A DNA stretch of 54,243 bases, taken from the NCBI GenBank assembly GCA_964533285.1, contig CAZHLT010000277.1, forward strand, positions 1 to 54,243, in the 5' to 3' direction. Numbering within the stretch: position 1 is the first letter of the stretch; every line of letters begins with the position of its first letter. Shown here piece by piece: positions 41,009-54,243 of this stretch. Made by a program: the position numbers and the translations under genes. Below the pieces are notes generated by a model. The model saw only the letters and a list, made by a program, of their open reading frames with translations, made no database searches and was not told the origin of the DNA. This stretch comes from an uncultured Conexibacteraceae bacterium. Its GTDB lineage: Bacteria; Actinomycetota; Thermoleophilia; Solirubrobacterales; 70-9.

Positions 41009-42593
41009 ACAGAAAAGGCCCCTTTTCGAGGCTGTCGCGCAAAGGGCGCGGCAGCCCGGCGGTCAGCTGATCGGAGTCGAGCGGTCGGCTTCCAGAAGTG
41101 CCCAAGCGGCGACGGAAGGCCGGCGGCCTCCCCTCAGGCGGGCGCCGGATGGGCCAACCCCGCCCGCCAGAGCTTCAGGAGGTTGTGGGTGGCGGCGAGG
41201 AGCTTCCACTCAGCCCGGCAGGCGGCTAAGCCGCGGCGCTGGAAGCGGGTGGCGCCGCGGATGAACTTCGTGTTGGCGAAAACCGGCTCGACGATCTGGG
41301 CTCTTCGCCGGTAGAGCGCCTTGCCCTCGGGCGTGGCGAGGATCTTCTCTATTCGCTGGGCCTCGGGTCCCTGCTTGGTGGCGAGCTTGCGTGGCTTCGT
41401 TCTGCGGGCGTTGCGGGTCGGAACGATCACCTCGGTGCCCTGCTCGCGGATCGCGGTGATCTGCAGTGCGCTCCAGTAGCCGCCGTCGGCCAGGAGGGTG
41501 CCGATCGGCTCCTCGACGCCGGCAGCCCGGAGCTCCTCGCCGGCCTTGTCGACCATTGAGGTGAGCTCGGTCGAGTCGACCGGGGATTGGGTCAGGTCGG
41601 CGGCGAGGATCACCTGGCCCGAGGCGGCCACCACCTGAGCGTTATAGCCCTGGATCAGGCTGGTGCCGGTGCGCATCAGAGGCCGGGAGTCGGGATCGGT
41701 GGTGTTGATCTTTGCCTTCTGCAGGGCGTCTTCGGAGGGTGGGGCCGGCTTGCGTCCGGTCAGCTTGCGCCCGTGCTCTGCCTCCCAGGCCGCACGGCGC
41801 TCCAGGTGCTCCTCGTGGGAGCGCATTTCGGCGGCGTGGCCTGCCTCGAGCTCTTCGCGGCAGCGACGCAGGCGCTCGCGGCGAGAGCGGCGATCCGAAA
41901 GCTCCGCCGGCAGCTCATCGCCCCGCGCCTCGCCCAGCCCAGCGTCCTCGCGCTCGTCGGTCGCAGCTGCCTCCTCCAGCATCCGCTCGACCTCGGCGCG
42001 GATCTGCGGGTAGGCCCGGGTCGCCGCCGCAGAGGCGTTGGCGGAGATCAGGCTGCCGTCGAGGGCGACCACCCCGACCGAGACCAGGCCCGCCTTCGCG
42101 CAGAGCGCCAGGACCTGCGTGAAGGTGTCGGCGAGGGCCTGCTCGTGACGGGCGCGGAAGCGGGCGATCGTCGCGTGGTCTGGGATCTGGTTGGCGGCGA
42201 GGACCCTGAAGGCGACGTCCTCCCGGCAGCGGCGCTCGATGCCGCGCGAGGAGCGCTCGCCGACCGCGTAGGCGTAGAGCAAGAGCGCCACCATCATCTG
42301 CGGCTCGAAGGCCGCCCGCCCCCAGCCGTCCTCTCGATAGGCGGCGTAGAAGGCGGCGAGGTCCATCTCCCGCACGGCGTCGGCGACGAACCAGGCGAGG
42401 TGATCGTCGGGCAGCCACTCGCGCATGCTCGGCGGCAAGAGCAGCTCCTGGTCGCGGTCGCACTCGATGAAGTTCCGGGGCATCGCCCACCTCCGCGCTC
42501 GGGGTCAGGTCAATGCTCAAGGGCGCCCCGGACGTGAATGCGACTCACGTCCGGGGGTTTGTGCGACAGCCTCTTTCCGGGGCCTTTTCCTGT
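41009..42593 (-). mobile_element. IS1182-family insertion sequence (about 1.59 kb) with imperfect terminal inverted repeats of about 35 bp
   Basis: Left end acagaaaaggccccttttcgaggctgtcgcgcaaa (41009-41043). The reverse complement of the right end is acaggaaaaggccccggaaagaggctgtcgcacaaa (42558-42593). A single transposase ORF lies between them. Confidence 0.7.
41134..42483 (-). CDS. IS1182-family (IS5-like, DUF772 N-terminal + DDE) transposase
   Basis: 449 aa. MPRNFIECDRDQELLLPPSMREWLPDDHLAWFVADAV...GRAAFEPQMMVALLLYAYAVGERSSRGIERRCREDVAFR...LLADGGYWS...VEPVFANTKF. Confidence 0.85.
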   Translation of the reverse strand: MPRNFIECDRDQELLLPPSMREWLPDDHLAWFVADAVREMDLAAFYAAYREDGWGRAAFEPQMMVALLLYAYAVGERSSRGIERRCREDVAFRVLAANQIPDHATIARFRARHEQALADTFTQVLALCAKAGLVSVGVVALDGSLISANASAAATRAYPQIRAEVERMLEEAAATDEREDAGLGEARGDELPAELSDRRSRRERLRRCREELEAGHAAEMRSHEEHLERRAAWEAEHGRKLTGRKPAPPSEDALQKAKINTTDPDSRPLMRTGTSLIQGYNAQVVAASGQVILAADLTQSPVDSTELTSMVDKAGEELRAAGVEEPIGTLLADGGYWSALQITAIREQGTEVIVPTRNARRTKPRKLATKQGPEAQRIEKILATPEGKALYRRRAQIVEPVFANTKFIRGATRFQRRGLAACRAEWKLLAATHNLLKLWRAGLAHPAPA

Positions 42594-42624: not shown

Positions 42625-43803
42625 TCAGAGCAGCGGGTCGAGCTCGGCGAGGTAGCGAGCCAGCAGCGGATCGGTGATTTGCCAATCGCCCCGGCCCTCG
42701 CTGCGGGCGATCCCGATCCCCCGCAGCTCTTCGAGCGCGCGCCGCACCGAGTTGCGGGGCAGGTCGCGGTACGGGGGCTCGTTGCGGGCTATACGACGGG
42801 CCACCTCCAGGCCGTAGCGGTGGACGCCGCGCAACCGCTCGACGCTCTGCTCGTGGTTGACGCGCTCGCCTTCCAGGGCGGCGCGGTAGCCCTGCTCGAC
42901 CGCCGCCAGGTCGATCGTGCGGGTCTCCAGCAGCACCGAGGTCATGTGGGTCTTCTGAGCGATAAGCATCGTCCCGCGGGGGTGCCCGGCCCCGAGCTCG
43001 ACCAGCCGGCGCAGGGCGAGCTCGTCGACCTCGCAGCCGTCCAGGGCGAAGCGGGCGGCGAGGCCCCCGGCCCAGTCCTCCGCCGCGATCGGCCGCAGCC
43101 CGTGAAAGCTGCCGAATTGGCTGAGGGCGCGCTGGCGCGGCGTGAAGAGGTCGCGCATCAGGTGCTCGATCGAGCCGGCGAAGAGCACGCTCAGCCGGGG
43201 GCTGCGCTGGAAGATTGCCCGCATCCGTTTGGTCAGCGCGTCGGGGTCACCGTAGGGTGCGCGGACGCCGGCGATCTCCTGGAACTCGTCGAAGAAGAGC
43301 ACGACGCGCTTGCCGTCGGCCTCGGCGATGCGACCAGGGAGGGCGAGGGCGTAGTCGAGATAGCGCTCGGGGTCGCGACGGGCGAGGTGCGGCGTGAAGG
43401 CGATCTCCATCTCCTCCCCCAGCTCGGTCTTCGATTTGACCACCGCCGAGACGCCGGCGGCGTCGGCGACCAGGCGCCCAGCCTCGCGGGCCTGGTGGAC
43501 GATCCTCCGCAGCGCCGAGCGGTTGGCGATCGTCTGGGCTACCAGCGCTTCGGCCAGCTCGGCGGCCGAAGCGATCCGGAAGAGGTCGACCTCGACGACG
43601 TAGAGGCCGTCGCCTTCGAGGCGCCGCAGTGCCGCGTCGCAGACGCTCGTCTTGCCGGTTCGCCGGGGGCCGGAGATCACCAGGTGCCCGCCGCCGGCGA
43701 GCGTCGCGGCGATCTCCCGCACGTCCTCCCCGCGGCCAATCAGGAGCTCTGCGGGGAGCGGCCGGTCGGTCGGGAAGAGGATGGCGCTTGGCTCGCGGGG
43801 CAC
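42625..43803 (-). CDS. AAA-type ATPase (archaeal-ATPase/DUF234-like) with C-terminal winged-helix region
   Basis: Walker A GPRRTGKTS, Walker B VVLFFDEFQEI, C-terminal ..VRRALEELRGIGIARSEGRGDWQITDPLLARYL. Start placed at GTG 43803 because 43804-43860 is AT-rich and repeat-bearing. The ORF is open to 43917. Confidence 0.7.
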   Translation of the reverse strand: MPREPSAILFPTDRPLPAELLIGRGEDVREIAATLAGGGHLVISGPRRTGKTSVCDAALRRLEGDGLYVVEVDLFRIASAAELAEALVAQTIANRSALRRIVHQAREAGRLVADAAGVSAVVKSKTELGEEMEIAFTPHLARRDPERYLDYALALPGRIAEADGKRVVLFFDEFQEIAGVRAPYGDPDALTKRMRAIFQRSPRLSVLFAGSIEHLMRDLFTPRQRALSQFGSFHGLRPIAAEDWAGGLAARFALDGCEVDELALRRLVELGAGHPRGTMLIAQKTHMTSVLLETRTIDLAAVEQGYRAALEGERVNHEQSVERLRGVHRYGLEVARRIARNEPPYRDLPRNSVRRALEELRGIGIARSEGRGDWQITDPLLARYLAELDPLL

Positions 43804-44207
43804 ACGCCAGACCTTATCAGGATGCGTCCTAATTGACGCATGATGCGTCCGGCTTAGATTGTCGCCGAGTTGGCCCGCAGCAACCGCGAATTGGATCACG
43901 CTCAGATCGAGATGCACGAGGGCAATCCCAACGCGAAGCTGTCGATTCTCGTCAACATCGAGGGCGACGACGCCAAGTGCCTGGAGCGCATCGCCAACGA
44001 GCGCGGGTAGCCAGCCGGCGAGATCCTCACCGGCTTCTGCAGCGCCTACTGGAGATCACGACCAAGCGTGGCTTCTCCACGGCGCTCGCCACCCAGCTTG
44101 GTCGCTCCGCGCAGCTCGACGATGCCCTCACCGCCCAGCTTCTCCGGGACTGGTCCAGGCGCTTCGGGTCGACGACGACTTCAGCTGTTGTCTGTCAGAC
44201 AGACAAA

Positions 44208-44274: not shown

Positions 44275-44319
<45 letters not shown>

Positions 44320-44444: not shown

Positions 44445-45197
44445 TCATCCGAAGGCAGCTTCCACGGGAGCCGGATCCGGCCAGCCCAAGGTGGCGCCGG
44501 AAATGAACAGGGTAAAGCCGAGCAGAACCGAGCCGAGGCCAAAAGGTCCGTGCATCTCGGGGTCGCGCTGTTCGAGCTGGACGCGGCGACGGCCTGAGGG
44601 CAGCTCGACCGTGACGGTGTTCAGGCCCATCAGGCTGGCGTGCGCGATGGCGCTGTGGCGTCGGTAGGCGACGGCGTAGAGCCCGCGATAGGAGCGCGTG
44701 CTACTGGAATCCTCGAGCGCGGGTATGCGGCCGACCCAATGGCGATCGGCGGCCTCGGCCCTCTGGAGGAGGTCGGGCATCTCCTTCGGCAGCTCGGCCG
44801 CCTGCCGCTCGAAGCCCGCCCGCTGATGCTCGTCGAGGAGTTGCACGCCGACCCTGCGGGCATCGTCGTCCATCGACAGCCGCGAGACCGCGTCGGACTT
44901 CAAGAACCGCCGATGGCGGTCCTCGCCCGGGTCCGCGGCGAGCCAGGCGAAAGTCACGGCGTGCTCGTAAAGAGTGCGCAGCAACACCAGCGGGTCGGCT
45001 TCGCCACCAAGCGGACGCAGGGAGAGCAGCGCGGTAAGGCTGCCGACCTGCCGGGAGACTAGAGCCGGTCCGGTGAGCTGCCAGGCATCCGCGGGCCCGG
45101 TCGGCAGCACCTCCAGCGGAAGATGGGGCTCGACCAGGCCGATCAGGGAGCGACCGCGGCGCTCTGCGAGATCGTCGCGGTCGCGATAGTCGGTCAT
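44445..45197 (-). CDS. Hypothetical 250-aa protein, partner of the TIR gene
   Basis: Good high-GC coding ORF starting 38 nt after the TIR gene stop. LRTLYEHAVTFAWLAADPGEDRHRRFLKSD...YRGLYAVAYRRHSAIAHAS. I recognise no family. Confidence 0.6.
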   Translation of the reverse strand: MTDYRDRDDLAERRGRSLIGLVEPHLPLEVLPTGPADAWQLTGPALVSRQVGSLTALLSLRPLGGEADPLVLLRTLYEHAVTFAWLAADPGEDRHRRFLKSDAVSRLSMDDDARRVGVQLLDEHQRAGFERQAAELPKEMPDLLQRAEAADRHWVGRIPALEDSSSTRSYRGLYAVAYRRHSAIAHASLMGLNTVTVELPSGRRRVQLEQRDPEMHGPFGLGSVLLGFTLFISGATLGWPDPAPVEAAFG

Positions 45198-45235
45198 GGC
45201 GGAGACGGTAGAGCGCGTCGGGGCGCTAAGAAAAC

Positions 45236-46192
45236 TCAGCGGCGGGTGCCCTGTGGCTCACCGAGCTTCTCGGCCAGGAGGTCGACGAGAGTGGCGGGCG
45301 CGAACTCGGCGAGGTCGATGTATCCGATCGTCGGCCCCAAGCCCGGTAGCTCGGTGTCATCGAAGCGCGCCGGGAGGACGTACTCGTCCTCCTCCAGCGC
45401 GCGAGAGAGGGCGCTGCGGCGCTCGTGCTTCGTCCAGGGTTTCTCTGCGTACTCCTTGGAGATGAACATGACGCAGGCGCGCGAGGCAACGCGATAGACG
45501 TGTTCGAAATGCTCGGCGAGGTTCTTGCCCCATAGGTCTGCCTGCTCATCGGCGTCGTAGAAGACCGCGTAGTGACGCTCCTTGAGGCCACGAGCGACCA
45601 GCTCGACGTAGGAGCGCTGCTCGCCGGCAAAGGAAAGGCAGACGTCGAAAACCGGCCCTTCGGGCCGATCGTCGGGAGCCACCGAACTTCCGCGAGGTGA
45701 GATCGGCTGGCCGGAGAGAGTTAGTGGTGCCCCGCGGAAGGGCACAACATGATGGGGCTCGAAACCTGGAGTGGTCTGGGTCTGGCGACGGCGACGCTCG
45801 ATCTCCGCCAAGTCCCGCTTTTCGCGATCGAGCGCCTGCTTGCGCTTCGCCTCGTCGCGACGGTCCTCGGTGGCCTGCGCGCGCTGTTGCGAGGCGCGCG
45901 CCCGTTGCAGCTGGTCACCCTTTTTCGCTGCCTGGTCGTCAAAGCCCGCTGCCTTCACGTCGTGCTTGGCCGCACGCTCTTCGTGGCGGGCGGCGTCCTT
46001 TTCCTTGCCGAGTCGCTGGCTATCGCTCGTGTGGCGACTGATTCCGCTCAGCTTGCTGGTCGCGGCCTGCCGTTCTTTCGCAGCCCGTGATCGCTCTTCG
46101 CCGGCTTTCTTCTGCAAGCTGGCGATCTCCTTCTCAAGCCGGGCAACGCTGTTCGCGTACATGGATACCGACATCGTTCCCAAGCTATCCAT
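45236..46192 (-). CDS. Coiled-coil protein with C-terminal TIR domain
   Basis: ATG 46192 (alternative 46174). N-terminal ~190 aa is rich in K/E/R/A/Q (LEKEIASLQKKAGEERSRAAKERQAA..). TIR region VFDVCLSFAGEQRSYVELVARGLKERHYAVFYDADEQADLWGKNL...VMFISKEYAEKPWTKHERRSAL. Confidence 0.8.
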   Translation of the reverse strand: MDSLGTMSVSMYANSVARLEKEIASLQKKAGEERSRAAKERQAATSKLSGISRHTSDSQRLGKEKDAARHEERAAKHDVKAAGFDDQAAKKGDQLQRARASQQRAQATEDRRDEAKRKQALDREKRDLAEIERRRRQTQTTPGFEPHHVVPFRGAPLTLSGQPISPRGSSVAPDDRPEGPVFDVCLSFAGEQRSYVELVARGLKERHYAVFYDADEQADLWGKNLAEHFEHVYRVASRACVMFISKEYAEKPWTKHERRSALSRALEEDEYVLPARFDDTELPGLGPTIGYIDLAEFAPATLVDLLAEKLGEPQGTRR

Positions 46193-46289
46193 AGGAGCGG
46201 CGGATAGCCGGGAGCCGCCTTGAGCCAACCTCAGTTGGCACACCCAGCTTTTCTCAAAAAGGAGACGACGGAGGGAGCGGCTGCGATCT

Positions 46290-46673
46290 TCAGCTCGAAG
46301 AGGCGACGAGGACCGAAACCTCGTCGTGAGCGATGGCTCCGTGTTTCTGCGCACGGGCAGTGACCAGCAAGGGCTTGCGACTGACCGGGGCGACGTCGAG
46401 CACGAACTCGATCCCGAGTCGCCGCGCGGCGTTGATGATCGTGTCGATCTCCGGGTTGTGCTCCCCGGACTCGAGCTTCACGACGCGCGGCTGAGATACC
46501 CCCAGCTGCTTGGCCAGCTCCCGCTGGTTCAGCTTGTGCTCGGCTCGGTAGCGCAGAAGGGTTGCGGCGAACTCGCGGGCCGGGGCCAGCCGCTGCCACT
46601 CGGCGCGGAAGCTGGGGTCGGCGATCTGCTCCTCTGCGACGAGCTCGCCGAAAGTCTTGGTCTGATCTGCCAT
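46290..46673 (-). CDS. XRE-family HTH protein (HigA-like antitoxin/regulator)
   Basis: ATG 46673 after GAGAGGAGGAC. LNQRELAKQLGVSQPRVVKLESGEHNPEIDTIINAARRLG. Confidence 0.8.
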   Translation of the reverse strand: MADQTKTFGELVAEEQIADPSFRAEWQRLAPAREFAATLLRYRAEHKLNQRELAKQLGVSQPRVVKLESGEHNPEIDTIINAARRLGIEFVLDVAPVSRKPLLVTARAQKHGAIAHDEVSVLVASSS

Positions 46674-46723
46674 CGAAGTCCTCCTCTCGCTCGCCAGCAT
46701 GATAACAAACCTATTATCAGAGG

Positions 46724-47056
46724 TCAACGACGCCGGTCGAGCCGCAAACGCGCTTCGGCGACGGCGCGATCGAAGCCTCTCTTGCTCGGCGCGATGGCCA
46801 GGATGACGAAGCGGCTACCAGCGCGCGCGTAGATCGGGCGCACGGCGCTGGCGCCCTGTTTGGGGCGCAGCTCGAAGAGATCCGTCTCCCCCTTCAGCGA
46901 CTTCATATGCGGGGTCGGCAGATCCGGCCCCAGCTCCTTCAGCTTGTGGACTACGTTGAAGACCGCCTTGCGCTCGCTCTTGGATTTGACCTCCTCGAAA
47001 TCGAGCACGGCGTCGGCGTCGAAGTCGATCAGCCAGGATTTCGGCGTCGGCGCCAT
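46724..47056 (-). CDS. RelE/HigB-like toxin (phage Gp49-like)
   Basis: ATG 47056. FEEVKSKSERKAVFNVVHKLKELGPDLPTPHMKSLKGETDLFELRPKQGASAVRPIYARAGSRFVILAI. Toxin-first order as in HigBA. Confidence 0.7.
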   Translation of the reverse strand: MAPTPKSWLIDFDADAVLDFEEVKSKSERKAVFNVVHKLKELGPDLPTPHMKSLKGETDLFELRPKQGASAVRPIYARAGSRFVILAIAPSKRGFDRAVAEARLRLDRRR

Positions 47057-47088
47057 CGACCCGACTCTAATCTCACTTGCAAACCAAG

Positions 47089-48300
47089 CTAGGGAGCGGA
47101 TGAATCGTCGGGCTCCGTATCGGCACCTTGGTCGAAGGCGGTTGCATCGCCCGTCTCCTCCTCGTCCTCGGGCGGGGCGAAGGCGCGCTCGACCATTTCC
47201 TTCTCCTGCGAGCTGGGTGCATAGTCGGCGTAGATTTCGATCGTCGAGAGCTGAGCGTGGCCCATCCACTCCTGCAGGGTGCGCATCGGCACGCCGGCGG
47301 CCGCGCAGTGGGTGCCGAAGGTGTGGCGCAGGTCGTGGAAGCGGACCTCGCGCAAGGCGGCTGCCTTCAGCGCCTCCTTGTAGCGATCGCGCAGCGAGTT
47401 CGGCTCGAGCGGGGCGCCGGTATGGGGATGGGGGAAGACGAGATCCTCGTCGGCCGAGTAGGCCAAGCCGTCAAGGTGCTCGCGGAGGGCAGTCGCGACC
47501 CGATCGGCCATCGGAACTGACCGCGAGCCGCGCTTGGACTTCGGCGTGCCGAAGGCCTGGCGGGTGAAGTTCCGCCTCACCCTGATCCGCGCGGCGCCGA
47601 AGTCGACGTCGGAGCGGCGCAGAGCGATCAGCTCGCCCTGGCGCAGTCCGGTCATTGCGGCGACCAGGTAGATGGTGCGGTCGGTCGAGACGAAATCGCC
47701 GGCGGGGACGGCACCGAGCAGGGCCTCGACCTCGGCCAGCTCCAGGTAGCGGATGTCGGGGTCTGCCGTCCGGGCGCGGGGTCGCTCGACGGCGGGCACC
47801 GGGTTGAGCGCCACCCAGCCGCGCTTCAGCGCGAAGGCGAAGAAGCCGTGGAGGAAGACGAGCTGGTTGCTGGTCGTCTTGATCGCCAGCCCGTCGCACT
47901 TCTTGGCGGCGACGAAGGCGGCGATGCGGTCGGTGTCGACCTTCTCGATCGGGCGGTCGCCGAAGAACCTCTTGATGTGGGCGCGGAGCATCGAGCGGTA
48001 GTCGGCGATCGTCGACGGCTTGCGTTCGATCACCGTCTCGAGGTGGGTGACGTAGCGATCACCGACCTCGCCGACGCTCATCCCCGACCGGACGACGGCG
48101 CTCTCGGACTCGATCCGCCGCTGCATCTCGCGCTCTGCCTGGGCCGCGGTGAGGCCCTCGCGGCTGCCGGCCTTGCGCTTGGGACCGATCTTGCGGTTGA
48201 CCCGGCGCCCGCCGACATACCAGCTGCCGTACCAGGCCTCGACGCCGGCCGCGTCGACACGGACGTAGAGGCGTCCCGATCCATAGGAGCGCCGCGCCAT
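47089..48300 (-). CDS. int: Tyrosine-type site-specific integrase
   Basis: 403 aa. ..AMTGLRQGELIALRRSDVDF...SKRGSRSVPM...RFHDLRHTFGTHCAAAGVPMRTLQEWMGHAQLSTIEIYADY carries the R..HxxR..Y catalytic pattern. Confidence 0.9.
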   Translation of the reverse strand: MARRSYGSGRLYVRVDAAGVEAWYGSWYVGGRRVNRKIGPKRKAGSREGLTAAQAEREMQRRIESESAVVRSGMSVGEVGDRYVTHLETVIERKPSTIADYRSMLRAHIKRFFGDRPIEKVDTDRIAAFVAAKKCDGLAIKTTSNQLVFLHGFFAFALKRGWVALNPVPAVERPRARTADPDIRYLELAEVEALLGAVPAGDFVSTDRTIYLVAAMTGLRQGELIALRRSDVDFGAARIRVRRNFTRQAFGTPKSKRGSRSVPMADRVATALREHLDGLAYSADEDLVFPHPHTGAPLEPNSLRDRYKEALKAAALREVRFHDLRHTFGTHCAAAGVPMRTLQEWMGHAQLSTIEIYADYAPSSQEKEMVERAFAPPEDEEETGDATAFDQGADTEPDDSSAP

Positions 48301-48538
48301 CAGAGCCGGACCTCCTCGGCTTCGAGCTGCTCGACCCAGGCCTCGATCGCCTCGACGCGGTAGCGCCGGTAGCGCCCGAGGGTGCGGTGGGGATGCGGCC
48401 GGCCCGCGACTGCTTGTAGACCCAGCTCTTGGGGACGCCGAGCATCTGCGCGACCTGCTCGGCCGTGAGGAGAGAGCCGGACCGGCGGGGACGCGCCGGG
48501 TTCTCTCCTCCCTGCTCTGCTGCGGCGATCATGCTCAT
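48300..48538 (-). CDS. xis: Excisionase-type helix-turn-helix protein (Xis-like), apparent -1 frameshift
   Basis: ATG 48538 after AAGGAGGAG. ..LLTAEQVAQMLGVPKSWVYKQSRAGRIPTAP, then the expected LGRYRRYRVEAIEAWVEQLEAEEVRL* (its TGA overlaps the int ATG) is in the next frame. The span is 239 nt (3n-1). The shift sits at the plus-strand GGG run 48380-48382. Confidence 0.65.
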
Positions 48539-49120: not shown

Positions 49121-49561
49121 TCAGGCTCCTGGCAGCCTGACTGCCTGGAAGGCCAGCACCTCGGCGAGCTTGTCGAAGTGCGCGTCGTGATGAAGGGCAG
49201 CTATGCCGCCGTGCTCGGCGGCGGCAGCGGCGATCAGGGCGTCGGTGATCGGCACGCGGTGGTAGCCGTCGCTGCGTTCGGCAAGCTCGCCCAGGGCCCT
49301 CATCGCGGCGTCGGCGACGGCGCGATCGTTGCGAAGGATGCGCAGCGCGTCGAGCTCGTGCTCGAGGGCGACGTACTCGGCGGAGCTTCGAGCCGAGTAG
49401 AGAACCTCCATGCGCACGATCGGGGTGATCCAGAAGCGATCGGCGAGGATCGCGTCGTCGAGCAGCTTGCCGAGCTGGTCGGGGAGGGCGGCGATCCGCC
49501 ACCACGCCGAGGTATCGGCGACGAACGGGGCATCGCCGCTCAGCAGCTCGGCGGCGTTCAT
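49121..49561 (-). CDS. vapC: PIN-domain toxin VapC
   Basis: 146 aa. FVADTSAWWRI...RMEVLYSARS...ITDALIAAAAAEHGGIAALHHDAHFDKL. Confidence 0.8.
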   Translation of the reverse strand: MNAAELLSGDAPFVADTSAWWRIAALPDQLGKLLDDAILADRFWITPIVRMEVLYSARSSAEYVALEHELDALRILRNDRAVADAAMRALGELAERSDGYHRVPITDALIAAAAAEHGGIAALHHDAHFDKLAEVLAFQAVRLPGA

Positions 49562-49566
49562 CGGGC

Positions 49567-49737
49567 CTACTGGCGCTCGTCGCCGGTGAGCTTCTCGATC
49601 TTCTCGAGCGTGTCGCGGTCCAGGCCGTCGGGGCTGTGGAGTCGCGCCGCGAGCGAGCGCAGCCGCTCGGCGCGCTGCGCCTCGCTCAGCGCCGGCTTCT
49701 CCGCGGTCGGGGTGGTGCTCAGAAGGGAATGGCTCAC
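49567..49737 (-). CDS. Putative short antitoxin upstream of vapC (56 aa)
   Basis: Not in the ORF track. My translation from GTG 49737 is VSHSLLSTTPTAEKPALSEAQRAERLRSLAARLHSPDGLDRDTLEKIEKLTGDERQ*. It ends 5 nt before vapC. The start is uncertain because the frame stays open upstream. Confidence 0.4.
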   Translation of the reverse strand: MSHSLLSTTPTAEKPALSEAQRAERLRSLAARLHSPDGLDRDTLEKIEKLTGDERQ

Positions 49738-49796
49738 GCCGCTGAGGATAGCGCGCGCTCGGGCAGGCGAAGCGGGGGTGAGCTCATCTGCCGCGT

Positions 49797-50078
49797 CTAC
49801 TTCCAGGTGGCTCCCGAGCCGTAGCCGCCCACGTCGTCCGCGCGGACGGCGGCTGCGTCGCCGCGCCCCTCGGCCATGTCGCGCTGGACGGCACGGCGCT
49901 CGCGCCGACGATCGGCGGCCGGGGTGCGTTTCGCCTTCTTGAGGCGCTCGATCTCCCGGCTCGCCTCGGCCGAGGTCTGCGGGTAGGCGAAGGACTGCCC
50001 GCGGCTGACCGCGAGGTCGCGCAGGTAGCGGAGCTGCTTGGGCGTGGGCGGCTTGGAATGTGGCTGTGGATCGCTCAT
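49797..50078 (-). CDS. Small conserved hypothetical protein (DUF3072-like KQLRYLRxLA motif)
   Basis: Internal ATG 50078. MSDPQPHSKPPTPKQLRYLRDLAVSRGQSFAYPQTSAEASREIERLKK. Confidence 0.5.
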   Translation of the reverse strand: MSDPQPHSKPPTPKQLRYLRDLAVSRGQSFAYPQTSAEASREIERLKKAKRTPAADRRRERRAVQRDMAEGRGDAAAVRADDVGGYGSGATWK

Positions 50079-50209
50079 GGCCCGGGCGCCAGCGGGCCGG
50101 GGGAGCCCGCGCAGCGGGCGGAGGAGGTCTGCTACCCGTGCCAGGGCCGGGAGCGATCCACCGCCCGCGGCGGAGGGGACCCGCAGGAGGCAGGCCCCCT
50201 CCCCCACGC

Positions 50210-51718
50210 CTACTTCCCGGCCTGGCGCCGGCGCGGCTTCACCGCCTTCAGCTCGGAGGCGAGGAGCTTCCTCACCTGCGCCTCGGCGCCGGTCCCCCAG
50301 CCGATCCGCTTGGAGCGGGGCAGCTCGGACTGGTCGGCGAGCAGGCCGGCGATCACCGCGTCGATCAGGATCTCGACGCCCTCACCGACGTCGCGGGCCC
50401 GGTCGATGCTGTTGGTGAGGTATTCGAGGCACTGCTCGCGGTCGGCGTAGCTGACCTTCGAGCGCTTGGCGCCCGACTTCAGCTGCTTTACCTCGACCTC
50501 CTGCAGCTGGGAGAAGACGAGCCGCAGCCCGCGGGCGGGCAGCTCGGGGTTGTCGGCGAGCAGGATCGCCGCGAGCGCCTTGAGGCGGGCGAGGCCGTGC
50601 TCGCGGCGGGCCTGCTTGCCGCGGCGGGCGAGCAGGTTGCGGCCGAGGTCTTCGTTGAATTTCCTCGCCGCCGCCGCGCCCTTCTTGGCCTGCTCGCGCT
50701 CGGCCTTGCGGGCGTCTTTTGCCTCCTCGGGGCTGAGCTTCGCCTGGCCCGAGCGTTCGCGCCAGGCCGCCTCTTCCTCGGCTCGCTTCTTGGCTTCGGC
50801 CTCGATCCGCTCGACCGCGCGGCGGGCGACGTCGGCGGCCATCTCGGCGTCGGTGACGCAGGCGGCGACCGAGTAGAAGCCGCCCTGGTCGGTGCGGTGC
50901 TCGATCAGGCAGCCGGCCGCGCGCAGGGCGTCGGTCTCGGCTTCGCCGAACCGCACCCGAGGATCATCGGAGCGCATATAGCGGTCGGCGGCGTTGAGGC
51001 GGGCGGCCAGCTCGGCGCGCTCGCCCTCGTCGGCGATCAGCTCGCTGAGGCACGGCGAGCCGGCTTTGATCATCGTCGGCTTGTCCTCAAAGCGCCCCTC
51101 GGCGGTCAGCGCGAGCAGCTCGTCGAAGTGGCGGACGAAGTCGCCGGGGCGGGCCTTGTGGCGCTTGGCGGCGAGGCAGACGCACTCGGCGATCCGCGGT
51201 GAGACGGCGGCGACCTTGCGCAGCAGCGGCTCGGCGTCGACGGGGACCTCGCCGGCGGCGATCTGGCGCTGGCAGCCCTCGGGCAGGCTCAAGAGCCGCA
51301 GGTGGCGGCTGACCCAGGGGACCGACATGCTCGCCTCGGCGGCGATCTCCTTGTGGGTGGCGAGGCCGAGCTCCTCGGCCAGGGCCTTCAGGCCGCGGGC
51401 GCGGTCGATCGGGTCGAGCTCCTCCTGGTGGAAGTTCTCGACCAGGTTGATGAGGCGGGCCTTGGCGGCGTCGCCGAGCACCGCCGGCACCTTCTCGACG
51501 CCGGCGATCTGGGCCGCTTTCAGGCGCCGGTGACCGGCGATCAGCTCGTAGCGGCCGTCCTCGGTCGGCTTGACGACGAGCGGCTGGACGACGCCGACCT
51601 TGGCGTAGTTGGCGGCGAGGCGCTCGAGGGCGTCGGCGTCCATGTGGGTGCGGACGTTGAATCCCTCGGCGACGTCGATCTTCGCTACCTCGACTTCGGG
51701 AGTGGCTAGCTGCGTCAT
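50210..51718 (-). CDS. ParB/Spo0J-like N-terminal domain protein with long C-terminal extension (502 aa)
   Basis: VVQPLVVKPTEDGRYELIAGHRRLKAAQIAG and ENFHQEELDPIDRARGL form the ParB N-terminal box. HTH-like THKEIAAEASMSVPWVSRHLRLLSLP. Confidence 0.8.
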   Translation of the reverse strand: MTQLATPEVEVAKIDVAEGFNVRTHMDADALERLAANYAKVGVVQPLVVKPTEDGRYELIAGHRRLKAAQIAGVEKVPAVLGDAAKARLINLVENFHQEELDPIDRARGLKALAEELGLATHKEIAAEASMSVPWVSRHLRLLSLPEGCQRQIAAGEVPVDAEPLLRKVAAVSPRIAECVCLAAKRHKARPGDFVRHFDELLALTAEGRFEDKPTMIKAGSPCLSELIADEGERAELAARLNAADRYMRSDDPRVRFGEAETDALRAAGCLIEHRTDQGGFYSVAACVTDAEMAADVARRAVERIEAEAKKRAEEEAAWRERSGQAKLSPEEAKDARKAEREQAKKGAAAARKFNEDLGRNLLARRGKQARREHGLARLKALAAILLADNPELPARGLRLVFSQLQEVEVKQLKSGAKRSKVSYADREQCLEYLTNSIDRARDVGEGVEILIDAVIAGLLADQSELPRSKRIGWGTGAEAQVRKLLASELKAVKPRRRQAGK

Positions 51719-51812
51719 GGCAGAGCCTCCTTTACGGAGCAGGGCTCCCGCCCGATGCGGGAGCCGGTGCCCCCGCCCCGCACGCGACGCGTGCGACCCT
51801 GCGGGGGTCCGG

Positions 51813-52100
51813 CTACCCGAGGGCGGGCTGCGCCAGGGCGCGGGTGATCGCCTCGCGGCTCATCGGGCAGGCGCCGAGCTTCGCCGCCTGGCGACGGTAG
51901 TCGGCGACCAGCACCGCCAGCTCGGCCTTGCACTCGAAGCCGCGCTCGACGAAGTAGGGGCGGCCGGGGCCGCGCGGGTAGTCGTAGACGAAGACCTCGC
52001 CCTCGATCCGGCGGCCGACGAGGACGCGCTCGCCGTCCTCGGTGCGGTAGCGGCCGAGCTCGACGCTCCGGCCGGTCGGCGCTGCGGTCGTCGTGGACAT
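51813..52100 (-). CDS. Hypothetical small protein (95 aa)
   Basis: Clean ORF (..VELGRYRTEDGERVLVGRRIEGEVFVYDYPRGPGRPYFVERGFECKAELAVLVADYRRQAAKLG). Confidence 0.5.
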   Translation of the reverse strand: MSTTTAAPTGRSVELGRYRTEDGERVLVGRRIEGEVFVYDYPRGPGRPYFVERGFECKAELAVLVADYRRQAAKLGACPMSREAITRALAQPALG

Positions 52101-52242
52101 CGCTGCCTCCTTTGGCTCGCTGGCGGAACTCGCCGAGCCGTCAGGGCGAGCGGGCGGCGGCCCGGAACCCGAGCGCCAGCGAGGGCGCGTCAGCGAGGCC
52201 CGCGCAGCGGCGCCTTGCAGGGCCGCCGGGCGCTCGCCAGGC

Positions 52243-52497
52243 TCAAGGCGGGTTTCGACGGCGAGCGGAGAAAGAGGGCAGGGTGGTAGGCGGTGTCCGT
52301 GTGGCGACGGAGGATGCGGGGGTGTCCAATTGCTGGACGAGCGTGTGCGCGACAGCGTGCTGGGCGTAGTTCAGCAGGGCGCCGAACTGCACACCTTCGC
52401 GTGGGAGGCCGGCCTGTTCAAGCCAGGGAACGAGGGGCTGCTCGGTGGACGGGCGACTCGGGCACCATGCGGCAGCGCCGCGAAAGCGTTGCCGCAT
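52243..52497 (-). CDS. Possible small hypothetical protein (84 aa)
   Basis: The only ORF with acceptable third-position GC in the 410-nt gap 52101-52509 (..PWLEQAGLPREGVQFGALLNYAQHAVAHTLVQQL..). Weak support. Confidence 0.25.
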   Translation of the reverse strand: MRQRFRGAAAWCPSRPSTEQPLVPWLEQAGLPREGVQFGALLNYAQHAVAHTLVQQLDTPASSVATRTPPTTLPSFSARRRNPP

Positions 52498-52509
52498 GGG
52501 CGCCGCCGC

Positions 52510-53358
52510 CTATCCAGCGCCCTTGGCGCCGAAACCGAAGCCCCAGCCGGCATACGGGACCTGACTGAAGTCCCAGCCGCCCTCCGGCGCCCTGACCGGA
52601 GCCGGGCCGTCCCCCGCCGGGACCGGCTCGCACGGGCCGACCTCGCCTTCGGCGACCCGCACCTGCCCGACGGTGTCGATGTGCGCGTGCTCGGAGGGAA
52701 CCGGACGCTGTTCGTCGGCGGCTGCGGGCGCGCCGGAGAAGACCACCGTCTGATCCGGCCGCAGCCCGGTGGGGTCGATCACGAAGCTCGGCCAATCGGC
52801 GGCGGAGTAGTCGCCCTGTTGGACGGCCTCGCGTATGTCTTCGTCCATCGCCTTGCGCTGGGGGTAGTCGCCGATCGCGATGGTCAGCGGGCCGTCGATG
52901 CTTTCGTAGTCGAAGCCGGCCCAGGGCTGGGGTTGGGGCTGGCCCGCCTGCAGCGTCCGCAGCAGCGCCATCGACGGCTGGTAATGCGGTTCGCGGCACG
53001 TCGTCCCCGCCGGGAGATAGGTCACCTGGGAGCGGACGCCGGCTTCCTCCAGAGCCTGTTCGACGCCTTCGGGATCGCCGAGGCTGTAGATCTTGACCAG
53101 GGTCCCGCCGCCCTGCTGGGGTTCGACCGCGAAGGCCGCGGGGGGGTTGTCGCCGCCGGCGATGACGATCAGCGCCGCGGCGACGGCGGGGACGGCGAGC
53201 GCGGCGCCAAGCGCTAGGCGCCGGCCGCGCCGGCGCCAGGATGGCGCGGTGACCGGTGCCGCTGCTGCCTGCGCCCGGGCGGCGGCGTCGAGGTCGGCGA
53301 CCGCTGCCTCGTGGAGGGCGTCGCCAAGGCGATCGAGCTGGTTGTCGATGTTGGTCAT
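52510..53358 (-). CDS. Single-pass membrane protein co-translated with the ECF sigma factor (putative anti-sigma factor)
   Basis: ATG 53358 in an ATGA overlap with the sigma stop. Cytoplasmic N-terminus, TM segment LALGAALAVPAVAAALIVIAG, ~200-aa extracytoplasmic domain. No HxxxCxxC zinc motif. Confidence 0.5.
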   Translation of the reverse strand: MTNIDNQLDRLGDALHEAAVADLDAAARAQAAAAPVTAPSWRRRGRRLALGAALAVPAVAAALIVIAGGDNPPAAFAVEPQQGGGTLVKIYSLGDPEGVEQALEEAGVRSQVTYLPAGTTCREPHYQPSMALLRTLQAGQPQPQPWAGFDYESIDGPLTIAIGDYPQRKAMDEDIREAVQQGDYSAADWPSFVIDPTGLRPDQTVVFSGAPAAADEQRPVPSEHAHIDTVGQVRVAEGEVGPCEPVPAGDGPAPVRAPEGGWDFSQVPYAGWGFGFGAKGAG

Positions 53359-54005
53359 CAGTGGTTCTCCTTTGAGTTGGAAAGACGTCGGCGCAGGGCA
53401 GCGAGACCACGGTGGACGCGAACGCGCGCCGCCGATCGACTGGTCCCCAGGGCCTCGGCTACCTCGTCGTAGTCGAGCTCGTCGATGATCCGCAGCCGCA
53501 ACGCGTCGCGCTGGGAGAGCGGCAGGGTGTCGAGCAGTTCGTCGGCTCCCTCCGCCCAGCCGGGCTCGGGAGTGGCGCCGGGCGCTTCGATGTCGAGGCG
53601 CTCGAGCACGCCGAGCCGGGCCGCGGTGCGGCGCTCGACCTCGCCGCGACGAACCGACATCAGCAGCACGTTGCGGGCGATGCCGAAGAGCCACGGCGCG
53701 AGCGAGCCGTCGCGCTGGTCCTCGAAGCGCTCCCTCATCACCCAGACCCGGGAGAACGTCTCGGCGGTCAGTTCGAGCGCCGAGTCCCCGCTGCCGGTGC
53801 GGCGGGCGAAGTAGCGGCAGAGACGCTCGCTGTAGCGGTCGTAGAGCTCGCGGAAGGCATCCGGGTCGCTGCCCGATGCCCGCAGGAGCTCGGCGTCGGC
53901 CGGAACCCCAGCGGACCCGGCGCGGCCCGGCTCACGTTCCCGAGGGCCGGACCACTCGGGCGCGGCTACCGCGTGGAGAGGTATGGGTTGGTTGGCCATG
54001 CCCAC
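53358..54005 (-). CDS. ECF-type RNA polymerase sigma-70 family factor
   Basis: Region 2 AFRELYDRYSERLCRYFARRTGSGDSALELTAETFSRVW. Region 4 LPLSQRDALRLRIIDELDYDEVAEALGTSRSAARVRVHRGLAALRRRL. Confidence 0.85.
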   Translation of the reverse strand: MGMANQPIPLHAVAAPEWSGPREREPGRAGSAGVPADAELLRASGSDPDAFRELYDRYSERLCRYFARRTGSGDSALELTAETFSRVWVMRERFEDQRDGSLAPWLFGIARNVLLMSVRRGEVERRTAARLGVLERLDIEAPGATPEPGWAEGADELLDTLPLSQRDALRLRIIDELDYDEVAEALGTSRSAARVRVHRGLAALRRRLSNSKENH

Positions 54006-54192: not shown

Positions 54193-54199
54193 TTCTGTA

Positions 54200-54243
54200 T
54201 AGCGGGGGCAGGATTCGAACCTGCGACCTTCGGGTTATGAGAT
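54200..54243 (-). tRNA. tRNA-Met (CAT), initiator-like; 5' half lies beyond the window edge
   Basis: The reverse complement reads ..CTCATAACCCGAAGGTCGCAGGTTCGAATCCTGCCCCCGCTA. It has anticodon loop CUCAUAA with a CCC-containing anticodon stem as in initiator tRNAs, an intact T-arm (GCAGG/CCTGC), discriminator A, and no encoded CCA. Confidence 0.7.

Follow-up and report, generated by a model that had tools for sequence, protein, structure and literature searches.

Four genes follow one another behind the integrase of a genomic island, all of them on the minus strand of the window (by which we mean the whole stretch of 54,243 nucleotides analyzed); their positions, together with those of the integrase and the island ends, are given in Table 1. 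The island is about 9.9 kb long and is delimited by the two direct copies of a 43-nt repeat (D7; 95% identical) that corresponds to the 3′ part of a tRNA-Met(CAT) gene, the anticodon-loop sequence CTCATAA being readable in the distal copy. The same att sequence adjoins intact tRNA-Met genes in two related loci, L048 and L052, where it borders cargo. Neither ARAGORN (which reported no complete tRNA) nor Rfam found a tRNA in the window, because the contig end cuts the intact gene. With direct repeats of a tRNA 3′ end on either side of a segment carrying a tyrosine integrase, this is a tRNA-integrated genomic island. The original prediction had placed four co-directional genes after the integrase of a tRNA-borne island, next to toxin-antitoxin genes, and in this it was right: the island, the integrase and all four genes are real, and the genes occupy the cargo slot of the tRNA-Met site.

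Table 1. Island ends, integrase and cargo genes, with positions in the window
Feature	Position	Strand	Identification and remarks
Distal att repeat	44275..44317	(-)	tRNA-Met(CAT) 3′ part, anticodon loop to acceptor end; island end
DUF5677 protein, 250 aa	44445..45197	(-)	Pfam PF18928
Coiled-coil TIR protein, 318 aa (312 aa from 46174 start)	45236..46192	(-)	TIR_2, PDC-S66
XRE-family HTH protein, 127 aa	46290..46673	(-)	HTH_3, 4e-12; HigA-like, the antitoxin of the Gp49 pair or its regulator
Gp49/HigB (RelE-superfamily)-like toxin, 110 aa	46724..47056	(-)	PF05973, 8.6e-9
Tyrosine integrase	47089..48300	(-)	Phage_integrase, 2.5e-29, plus SAM-like N-terminal domains; reads towards the distal att site
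HTH_17 (excisionase-like) ORF	48059..48538	(-)	PF12728, 1.3e-6; upstream of and overlapping the integrase; boundaries uncertain
Proximal att repeat	54199..54241	(-)	D7 copy within tRNA-Met gene truncated by the contig end

The two genes nearest the integrase would be an ordinary HigBA-like toxin-antitoxin pair travelling with the cargo. They resemble type II pairs of the HigB/HigA type in their order (toxin first, antitoxin second), their sizes (about 110 and 127 aa) and their combination of Gp49 and HTH_3 domains, but differ in that both proteins fall short of the curated cut-offs of NCBIfam (the XRE protein matches the Y4mF-family antitoxin model at 1.9e-12, under that model's cut-off), and their activity here is a predicted one.

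The C-terminal TIR domain that had been claimed for the third gene is borne out by Pfam: TIR_2 (PF13676) matches residues 238–350 of the 372-aa open reading frame at 4.5e-16, with 59.9 bits against a cut-off of 28. The ATG at 46174 is the more likely start of the protein, since its relatives begin with MSVSM and are 311 aa long. In the AF2 model, an N-terminal helical hairpin of about 130 aa (helices 9–49 and 57–139; pLDDT >90 over most of its length, dropping towards the linker) is followed by a disordered linker (141–176) and by the TIR domain, which is modeled with moderate confidence (pLDDT 48–54 over approximately residues 251–290). What the original prediction counted as a “~190-aa coiled coil” is this hairpin plus the disordered linker. 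Hairpin and TIR domain are flexibly linked in the whole-protein model, and a Foldseek search with that model gave weak matches (E of at least 0.08), among them ESCRT-III-like hairpins, SARM1, TcpB and the SPARTA TIR.

The best PDB sequence matches of the TIR domain are AbTir and BtTir (6e-9 to 3e-8), and its best solved TIR relatives overall are AbTir, BtTir and TcpB (7UWG, 7UXU, 8G83, 7UXR and 4LZP; 6e-9 to 5e-7). In the profile search against PDB sequences, residues G222, L225, K251, W253, T254 and E257 align with G174, L177, K202, W204, T205 and E208 of AbTir, so that the catalytic glutamate, the cyclization tryptophan, the diphosphate-binding lysine and the BB-loop glycine of AbTir, BtTir and TcpB all have aligned counterparts. 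W253 and E257, which align with the catalytic W204 and E208, frame the W-x3-E motif (W253-T-K-H-E257), and this motif is invariant in 38 family members; the glutamate used by NAD-cleaving TIRs, expected here from inspection of the motif, is therefore present. E208 is catalytic in AbTir, and the E208A mutant is inactive. Two further AbTir residues, R178 and Y207, are needed for AbTir activity but are not conserved in the window TIR, where the alignment puts A226 and H256 in their place. The AbTir TIR core comprises residues 134–269. Full-length proteins of the AbTir/BtTir/TcpB type also have an N-terminal coiled-coil region; however, no sequence similarity was detected between those regions and the hairpin of the window protein. 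AbTir differs in setting as well, being discussed as a pathogen virulence factor, while the window TIR belongs to the cargo of an island and its host is an actinobacterium from soil.

The combination of coiled coil and TIR had been put forward as undescribed. Judged by profile matches, however, it is already catalogued, in PADLOC as PDC-S66 and in PHROG family phrog_15646: PDC-S66 (model PDLC05062) matches the whole protein at 2.1e-30 and each half separately (N-terminal half 1.8e-12, profile 1–133; TIR domain 2.2e-12, profile 145–239), full-length relatives match it at 1e-43, and phrog_15646, a family that occurs in phage genomes, matches over the full length. The likeness to PDC-S66 thus extends to the same two-part architecture and to its status as a single-gene candidate. 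The settings differ, in that PDC systems were predicted from genes lying inside BREX, DISARM and RM loci, whereas the window gene lies outside such loci, in the cargo slot between the integrase and the att site of an island from an actinobacterium. PADLOC's PDC systems are explicitly candidate defense predictions, and in the accessible portions of the literature PDC-S66 figures as a prediction only. Consistent with a single-gene system, no neighbor is conserved across 13 full-length coiled-coil TIR loci or across the larger set of 82 loci: one TIR relative stands alone among housekeeping genes, and others adjoin an integrase, Fic, DUF4917 or helicases.

The usual partners of TIR proteins in Thoeris, CBASS and retron systems had been reported missing, and this held up, as no PADLOC model for ThsA, cyclase, STING, reverse transcriptase or NTPase found a match among the neighbors scanned. 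Membership in Thoeris was considered and rejected. The window protein shares with Thoeris a TIR domain with the catalytic glutamate and weak matches to ThsB models (0.0067 for the window TIR, down to 1e-7 in relatives), but PADLOC detected no ThsA (SIR2/SLOG or Macro/TM) among the DUF5677, XRE, Gp49 and AAA_16 neighbors, there is no conserved second gene, and ThsB proteins are without the helical hairpin. The window protein would instead belong, as a self-contained protein, to the coiled-coil TIR class represented by PDC-S66, with a TIR domain of the AbTir kind.

The 250-aa protein, which at first could be assigned to no family, belongs to Pfam DUF5677 (PF18928; 6.9e-10, 39.7 bits against a gathering cut-off of 27.1), and the model is above its cut-off in all 33 aligned relatives as well (best 1.4e-19). 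The Pfam model spans residues 63–194, whereas the subfamily of the window is conserved across all 250 residues. At 50% identity the family has 909 representatives; nearly all are stand-alone proteins of about 250 aa, and the longer members have no informative extra domain that might give a clue to function. The AF2 model is all-alpha and confident (pLDDT 93, pTM 0.90), and it has no PDB match by fold (Foldseek) or by sequence profile. Several invariant polar residues suggest an active or binding site. Among them is an R179-x6-H186 pair, and a HEPN nuclease was accordingly considered, but Pfam showed no HEPN at E-values up to 1, the PDB sequence-profile search gave no support, and the Foldseek matches to Csx1 and AbiV had E of about 5 and probabilities <0.1. 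PADLOC found no match for the protein. One preprint reports the DUF5677 domain as enriched beside serine recombinases in Bacillota, where the one DUF5677 ORF assayed gave no phage defense. The gene would be a separate, stand-alone accessory, probably also related to conflict or to mobile elements.

The association of the TIR and DUF5677 genes was surveyed in 129 loci, a subset of all homologues: 47 with relatives of the DUF5677 protein (27–81% identical; upstream sequence of 1 kb or more in 29 of them) and 82 with relatives of the TIR protein (downstream sequence of 800 nt or more in 80 of them). No TIR match occurred in any of the 47 loci, and no DUF5677 gene in any of the 82; out of at least 587 TIR loci the best 80 were retained, most of which have only the TIR domain in common. 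As the two genes do not co-occur in the loci surveyed in either direction, the closest relatives included, the two-gene module of the original prediction is not supported; a lack of co-occurrence outside this genome was among the outcomes that the prediction itself had named as refuting it. The six closest TIR genes (85–88% identical) lie at the same tRNA-Met site in the order TIR-Gp49-XRE, with Gp49 homologues that are 69–75% identical and XRE homologues that are 80–86% identical to those of the window, and none has a DUF5677 gene. A TIR gene at 75% identity is followed by one for a 257-aa protein, which was rejected as a divergent DUF5677 (hhalign probability 0.03; no Pfam match). From the other side, two of the closest DUF5677 genes (78–81%) come after HicB-HicA; one such HicB-HicA-DUF5677 set (L134) is preceded by an integrase 62% identical in amino acids to that of the window, in an island that has the identical tRNA-Met fragment. 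Another of the closest DUF5677 relatives is flanked by two unknown proteins. The neighbors of DUF5677 genes form singleton clusters almost throughout, so that a conserved alternative partner was also rejected, HicBA being linked among the closest relatives only.

The cassette boundaries are visible in the DNA itself, as blastn homology blocks end at gene borders: one covers the TIR gene (45236 to about 46208; 82–84% nucleotide identity), one the DUF5677 gene (44450–45215; about 75%; shared with L049 and L134) and one the Gp49-XRE pair (46296–47065; 72–74%).

A two-gene defense system, with the TIR protein making a nucleotide signal or sensing infection and the DUF5677 protein acting as effector or regulator, has its appeal in the arrangement of the genes: they share a strand, are 38 nt apart, have no predicted terminator between them and lie near no known TIR partner, and the invariant polar residues of DUF5677 suggest a site for activity or binding. 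These same features of strand, spacing and missing terminator count against independence; they are compatible with co-transcription, and the two products may interact functionally at this locus. The absence of co-occurrence in both directions has nevertheless largely refuted such a system already, the breaks in DNA homology fall between the two genes, no fusion of TIR with DUF5677 turned up and DUF5677 is without a PADLOC match, so that we regard it as very improbable. We give just as slim a chance to a juxtaposition that is recent but functional, in which this lineage would have enlisted DUF5677 to serve the TIR product as its effector, its receptor or an immunity factor, or in which Gp49, XRE, TIR and DUF5677 would make up one regulated unit; if true, this would be a newly assembled TIR signaling system whose partner has a predicted fold without a PDB counterpart.

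TIR, Gp49 and XRE together make a better, if still unlikely, candidate for a functional unit, with the HigA-like XRE protein repressing or gating the TIR gene or the HigBA-like pair tuning its toxicity. The three genes occur together in the window and in the six relatives, although the order is Gp49-XRE-TIR here and TIR-Gp49-XRE there; in L048 and L052 they lie between the intact tRNA-Met and a tRNA 3′ fragment, in different flanking contexts and with no integrase matching that of the window. In the window the XRE gene is directly upstream of the TIR gene, with a small hairpin (46224–46239) between them, and modulation of defense by a toxin-antitoxin system has been reported for Hachiman (PMC13064477). 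The linkage is shallow, however: it is confined to TIR identities of at least 85%, to Solirubrobacterales and to one tRNA-Met hotspot, and TIR relatives at 75% identity or less are without Gp49 and XRE. The unequal identities of the blocks (82–84% against 72–74%) suggest separate histories, and Gp49-XRE homologues adjoin DUF5677 without TIR in L011 and L046. More doubtful still is a role for the coiled-coil TIR protein outside phage defense, either as a Tcp-like NADase directed at other cells or at NAD metabolism or as a ThsB-like signal generator with a distant effector. Descriptions of AbTir, BtTir and TcpB class them as TIRs that are associated with virulence or non-immune, the ThsB models do match weakly, and the same subtype is found at syntenic positions in many Lentzea species, which looks more like core genome than variable cargo. 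Against this, the gene comes from a Solirubrobacterales MAG of soil origin for which no eukaryotic host is obvious, it occupies mobile-element cargo slots among defense-like genes, its family came to light through guilt-by-embedding, inside BREX, DISARM and RM systems, and is present in phage genomes, and there is no ThsA-like gene nearby.

We therefore consider it likely, on balance, that the TIR and DUF5677 genes are independent single-gene cargo, made neighbors when cassettes were shuffled between the integrase and the att site, and that the TIR protein is a self-contained NADase; shuffling at the tRNA-Met integration hotspot would have brought an unrelated DUF5677 gene next to the TIR gene. 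The TIR gene probably acts against phage by itself, through cleavage of NAD. What the analysis shows are the identities of the domains, the alignment of the catalytic residues, the absence of co-occurrence, the borders of the cassettes and the limits of the island; the NADase activity, its trigger and the anti-phage role are inferred. That the TIR gene adjoins Gp49-XRE in seven genomes despite the changed gene order counts against a strictly solo gene, and with these neighbors retained it could be less than strictly solo. As a self-contained NADase, the protein would be held inactive by its N-terminal helical hairpin, or the hairpin would serve as a sensor; infection or another trigger would then lead to TIR-TIR assembly and a composite active site, in which E257, with W253 and K251, would cleave NAD+. 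The outcome would be either direct depletion of NAD+ (abortive infection) or production of a cyclic ADPR isomer.

A new TIR system with a novel effector would have been notable, and the evidence removes that reading. What the locus offers instead is a clean actinobacterial example of a PDC-S66 coiled-coil TIR in which the AbTir-type catalytic residues compared here (Gly, Leu, Lys, Trp, Thr and Glu) are conserved, making it a reasonable candidate for asking whether PDC-S66 proteins defend alone. It is also a clear instance of cassettes being shuffled one gene at a time within the integrase-att slot of tRNA-Met islands and, with that, a caution for guilt-by-adjacency: adjacent, co-directional and tightly spaced genes in that slot are not a system. 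DUF5677, for its part, is a widespread family carried by mobile elements, and its confident all-alpha model may merit structural and functional work.

The contig, 54,243 bp from a Solirubrobacterales metagenome-assembled genome, carries a run of minus-strand genes transcribed in the order integrase, Gp49/HigB-like protein, XRE protein, TIR protein and a 250-aa ORF (see table), and ORF calls, Pfam matches and att repeats confirmed both these genes and the island placement that had been proposed for them. No tRNA was reported by ARAGORN or Rfam anywhere in the window, since the intact tRNA-Met gene is severed by the contig end; the island, bounded by this truncated gene and by a displaced 3′ fragment of it, is therefore about 9.9 kb long. 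From the integrase to the distal att site, the cargo slot is occupied by the Gp49, XRE, TIR and DUF5677 genes, and G+C there is 0.63-0.67, versus about 0.72 across the remaining island.

Features of the island and its att repeats
Feature	Position	Strand	Match or remark
3′ part of tRNA-Met(CAT)	44275-44317
250-aa ORF, 38 nt past TIR gene	44445-45197	-	DUF5677
TIR protein	45236-46192	-	TIR_2, 4.5e-16, 59.9 bits vs cut-off 28
XRE HTH protein	46290-46673	-	HTH_3, 4e-12
Gp49/HigB-like protein	46724-47056	-	PF05973, 8.6e-9
Tyrosine integrase	47089-48300	-	Phage_integrase, 2.5e-29
HTH_17 excisionase-like ORF	48059-48538	-
Direct repeat of 44275-44317	54199-54241		43 nt, 95% identical; 2 bases short of contig end

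About 240 nt of the HTH_17 ORF coincide, in a different frame, with the beginning of the integrase gene; either the overlap is unusual or an end has been wrongly placed. In the remaining island (49121-54005) are a PIN (VapC-like) gene, a DUF3072-like ORF, and genes for a 502-aa ParB-like protein and for an ECF sigma factor, the latter possibly paired with an anti-sigma protein; nothing recognisable as a replication or transfer gene was seen there. Immediately past the island's distal att site are found an AAA_16/ATPase_2 protein (42625-43917), with a weak PADLOC mad8 match (8.8e-6), and, at 41134-42483, an IS element encoding a DDE transposase; this may be left over from another insertion.

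The original prediction had joined the TIR protein and the 250-aa protein in an undescribed two-gene module, and for this we found no support. Co-occurrence outside this genome, a check set beforehand, was looked for in both directions and not found: none of 47 DUF5677 loci (46 metagenome loci with relatives 27-72% identical, plus the locus L049; 29 with at least 1 kb upstream) had a TIR match, and DUF5677 was absent from all 82 TIR loci (the best 80 of at least 587 kept; 80 of the 82 come from genomes of different species, and 80 have 800 nt or more of downstream sequence). The six closest TIRs listed (85-88% identical; L047, L048 and L050-L053, all Solirubrobacterales) are followed by Gp49 (69-75%) and then XRE (80-86%), a circular permutation of the window order with the same neighbours, and have no DUF5677 beside them. 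In L048 (5188-8090) and L052 (2629-8294) this trio is flanked on one side by an intact tRNA-Met and on the other by its 3′ fragment, with no match to the window integrase in either locus; a 751-aa SMC_N/AAA_23 ATPase accompanies the trio in L052. A TIR relative 75% identical is followed by an unrelated 257-aa protein; other distant TIRs are found after an integrase, in the company of Fic, DUF4917 and helicase genes, or by themselves amid housekeeping genes.

Of the closest DUF5677 genes (78-81%), two, in L134 (1610-5416) and L135 (210-1436), are preceded by HicB-HicA. L134 represents the same island family with other cargo, since its integrase is 62% identical to that of the window and its island ends at an identical tRNA-Met fragment. 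In L049 (200-3459) a third such DUF5677 gene lies between two proteins of no assigned family, with a HicB gene and that same tRNA-Met fragment close by, and overall the neighbours of DUF5677 cluster almost wholly as singletons. Blocks of DNA homology end at gene borders and differ in identity: 82-84% for TIR (45236-46208), 72-74% for Gp49-XRE (46296-47065) and about 75% for DUF5677 (44450-45215). The TIR and DUF5677 genes thus do not belong together; the locus is a mosaic of integrase-HicBA-DUF5677 and TIR-Gp49-XRE cargo sets at the same tRNA-Met hotspot.

The TIR protein matches PADLOC PDC-S66, a single-gene phage defence candidate (model PDLC05062), at 2.1e-30; its two halves each match the corresponding part of the profile (1.8e-12 and 2.2e-12), and full-length relatives reach about 1e-43. 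By these profile matches, the gene is a further member of a catalogued candidate class. PDC systems are 145 predicted candidates found as genes embedded within BREX, DISARM and RM loci; PDC-S66 appears in two genome surveys, one of which gives it only as a prediction. The profile phrog_15646 also matches over the full length. The same TIR subtype (55-62% identical) occurs in other phyla with different N- or C-terminal domains (among others L071, L098 and L129; also L103, L117 and L121), one fused N-terminal domain being common to the PADLOC candidate PDC-M01A and others being unrelated C-terminal domains; such mixed partners are typical of a modular effector domain. The subtype is syntenic across many Lentzea species (about 40 loci, L062-L127).

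An AlphaFold model, with 38 relatives as input, resolves the protein into a helical hairpin (helices 9-49 and 57-139; pLDDT >90 over most, dropping near the linker), a disordered linker (141-176) and a TIR domain (182-310, moderate model confidence). What had been described as a coiled coil of about 190 aa is thus a hairpin, some 130 aa long, followed by a linker. The expected W-x3-E catalytic glutamate is present: the solved TIR NADases AbTir and BtTir top the PDB sequence profile search (6e-9 to 3e-8), which aligns W253-T-K-H-E257 with AbTir W204-T-N-Y-E208, K251 with K202, and G222/L225 with the BB-loop G174/L177, and W253 and E257 are invariant among the relatives. In AbTir, E208A abolishes activity, and W204 and K202 touch the NAD mimic; AbTir R178 and Y207, however, have no conserved counterparts here. 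Translation more likely starts at the ATG at 46174, since relatives begin with MSVSM and measure 311 aa. The XRE stop and the TIR start are 97 nt apart, and between them lies a perfect 6-bp hairpin (GCCAAC-tgag-GTTGGC, 46224-46239, minus strand) that could be an operator or terminator.

The 250-aa protein, previously left without a family, scores 39.7 bits against Pfam DUF5677 (cut-off 27.1), as do all 33 of its aligned relatives above threshold. Its AlphaFold model (pLDDT 93, pTM 0.90) is all-alpha with a small beta-hairpin, for which Foldseek found no PDB fold match (best E=1.1) and a profile search of PDB sequences no meaningful one. An exhaustive profile search gave 909 representatives (clustered at 50% identity), and almost all of these are stand-alone proteins roughly 250 aa long; the few longer members carry no informative additional domain. 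Invariant polar residues (D68, R74, Y77, D102, D151, Y174, R179, S182, H186) suggest a putative catalytic or binding site. R179-x6-H186 is spaced much like a HEPN motif, an assignment that profile and fold searches do not support. A conserved hydrophobic helix (219-237; Kyte-Doolittle 1.75) may either be buried in the protein core or serve as a membrane anchor. According to one preprint, DUF5677 is enriched beside serine recombinases in Bacillota, and a single tested ORF gave no defence.

Close spacing and the lack of a predicted terminator between the TIR and DUF5677 genes would permit co-transcription, but with the two absent together in either survey direction, a functional pair could survive only as a recent, lineage-specific recruitment, which we regard as extremely unlikely. 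That the TIR protein works with Gp49-XRE is unlikely to a lesser degree: their adjacency is preserved though gene order changed, a real but shallow support, whereas the linkage holds only at ≥85% identity and at a single hotspot, with unequal block identities. Synteny across Lentzea would suit a TIR lacking a defence role, whether it resembles Tcp or is a ThsB-like protein whose effector is encoded at a distance, and this we consider very improbable.

With its hairpin-linker-TIR architecture, aligned catalytic residues, single-gene distribution, and mobile-element and defence-like contexts, the TIR protein is most plausibly a putative NADase of the coiled-coil TIR class that would work by itself. 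The helical hairpin would hold or sense; a trigger would then promote TIR-TIR assembly, completing the active site in the manner of AbTir and SARM1, and E257 would cleave NAD+, leading to depletion or to a cADPR isomer. DUF5677 counts as solo cargo, independent of the TIR gene, and Gp49-XRE, judged by its domains, an ordinary HigBA-like pair. DUF5677 itself is a widespread DUF with a confident model that lacks a PDB counterpart, the TIR gene is a good candidate for testing PDC-S66, and the locus as a whole illustrates step by step how cassette shuffling can imitate an operon.
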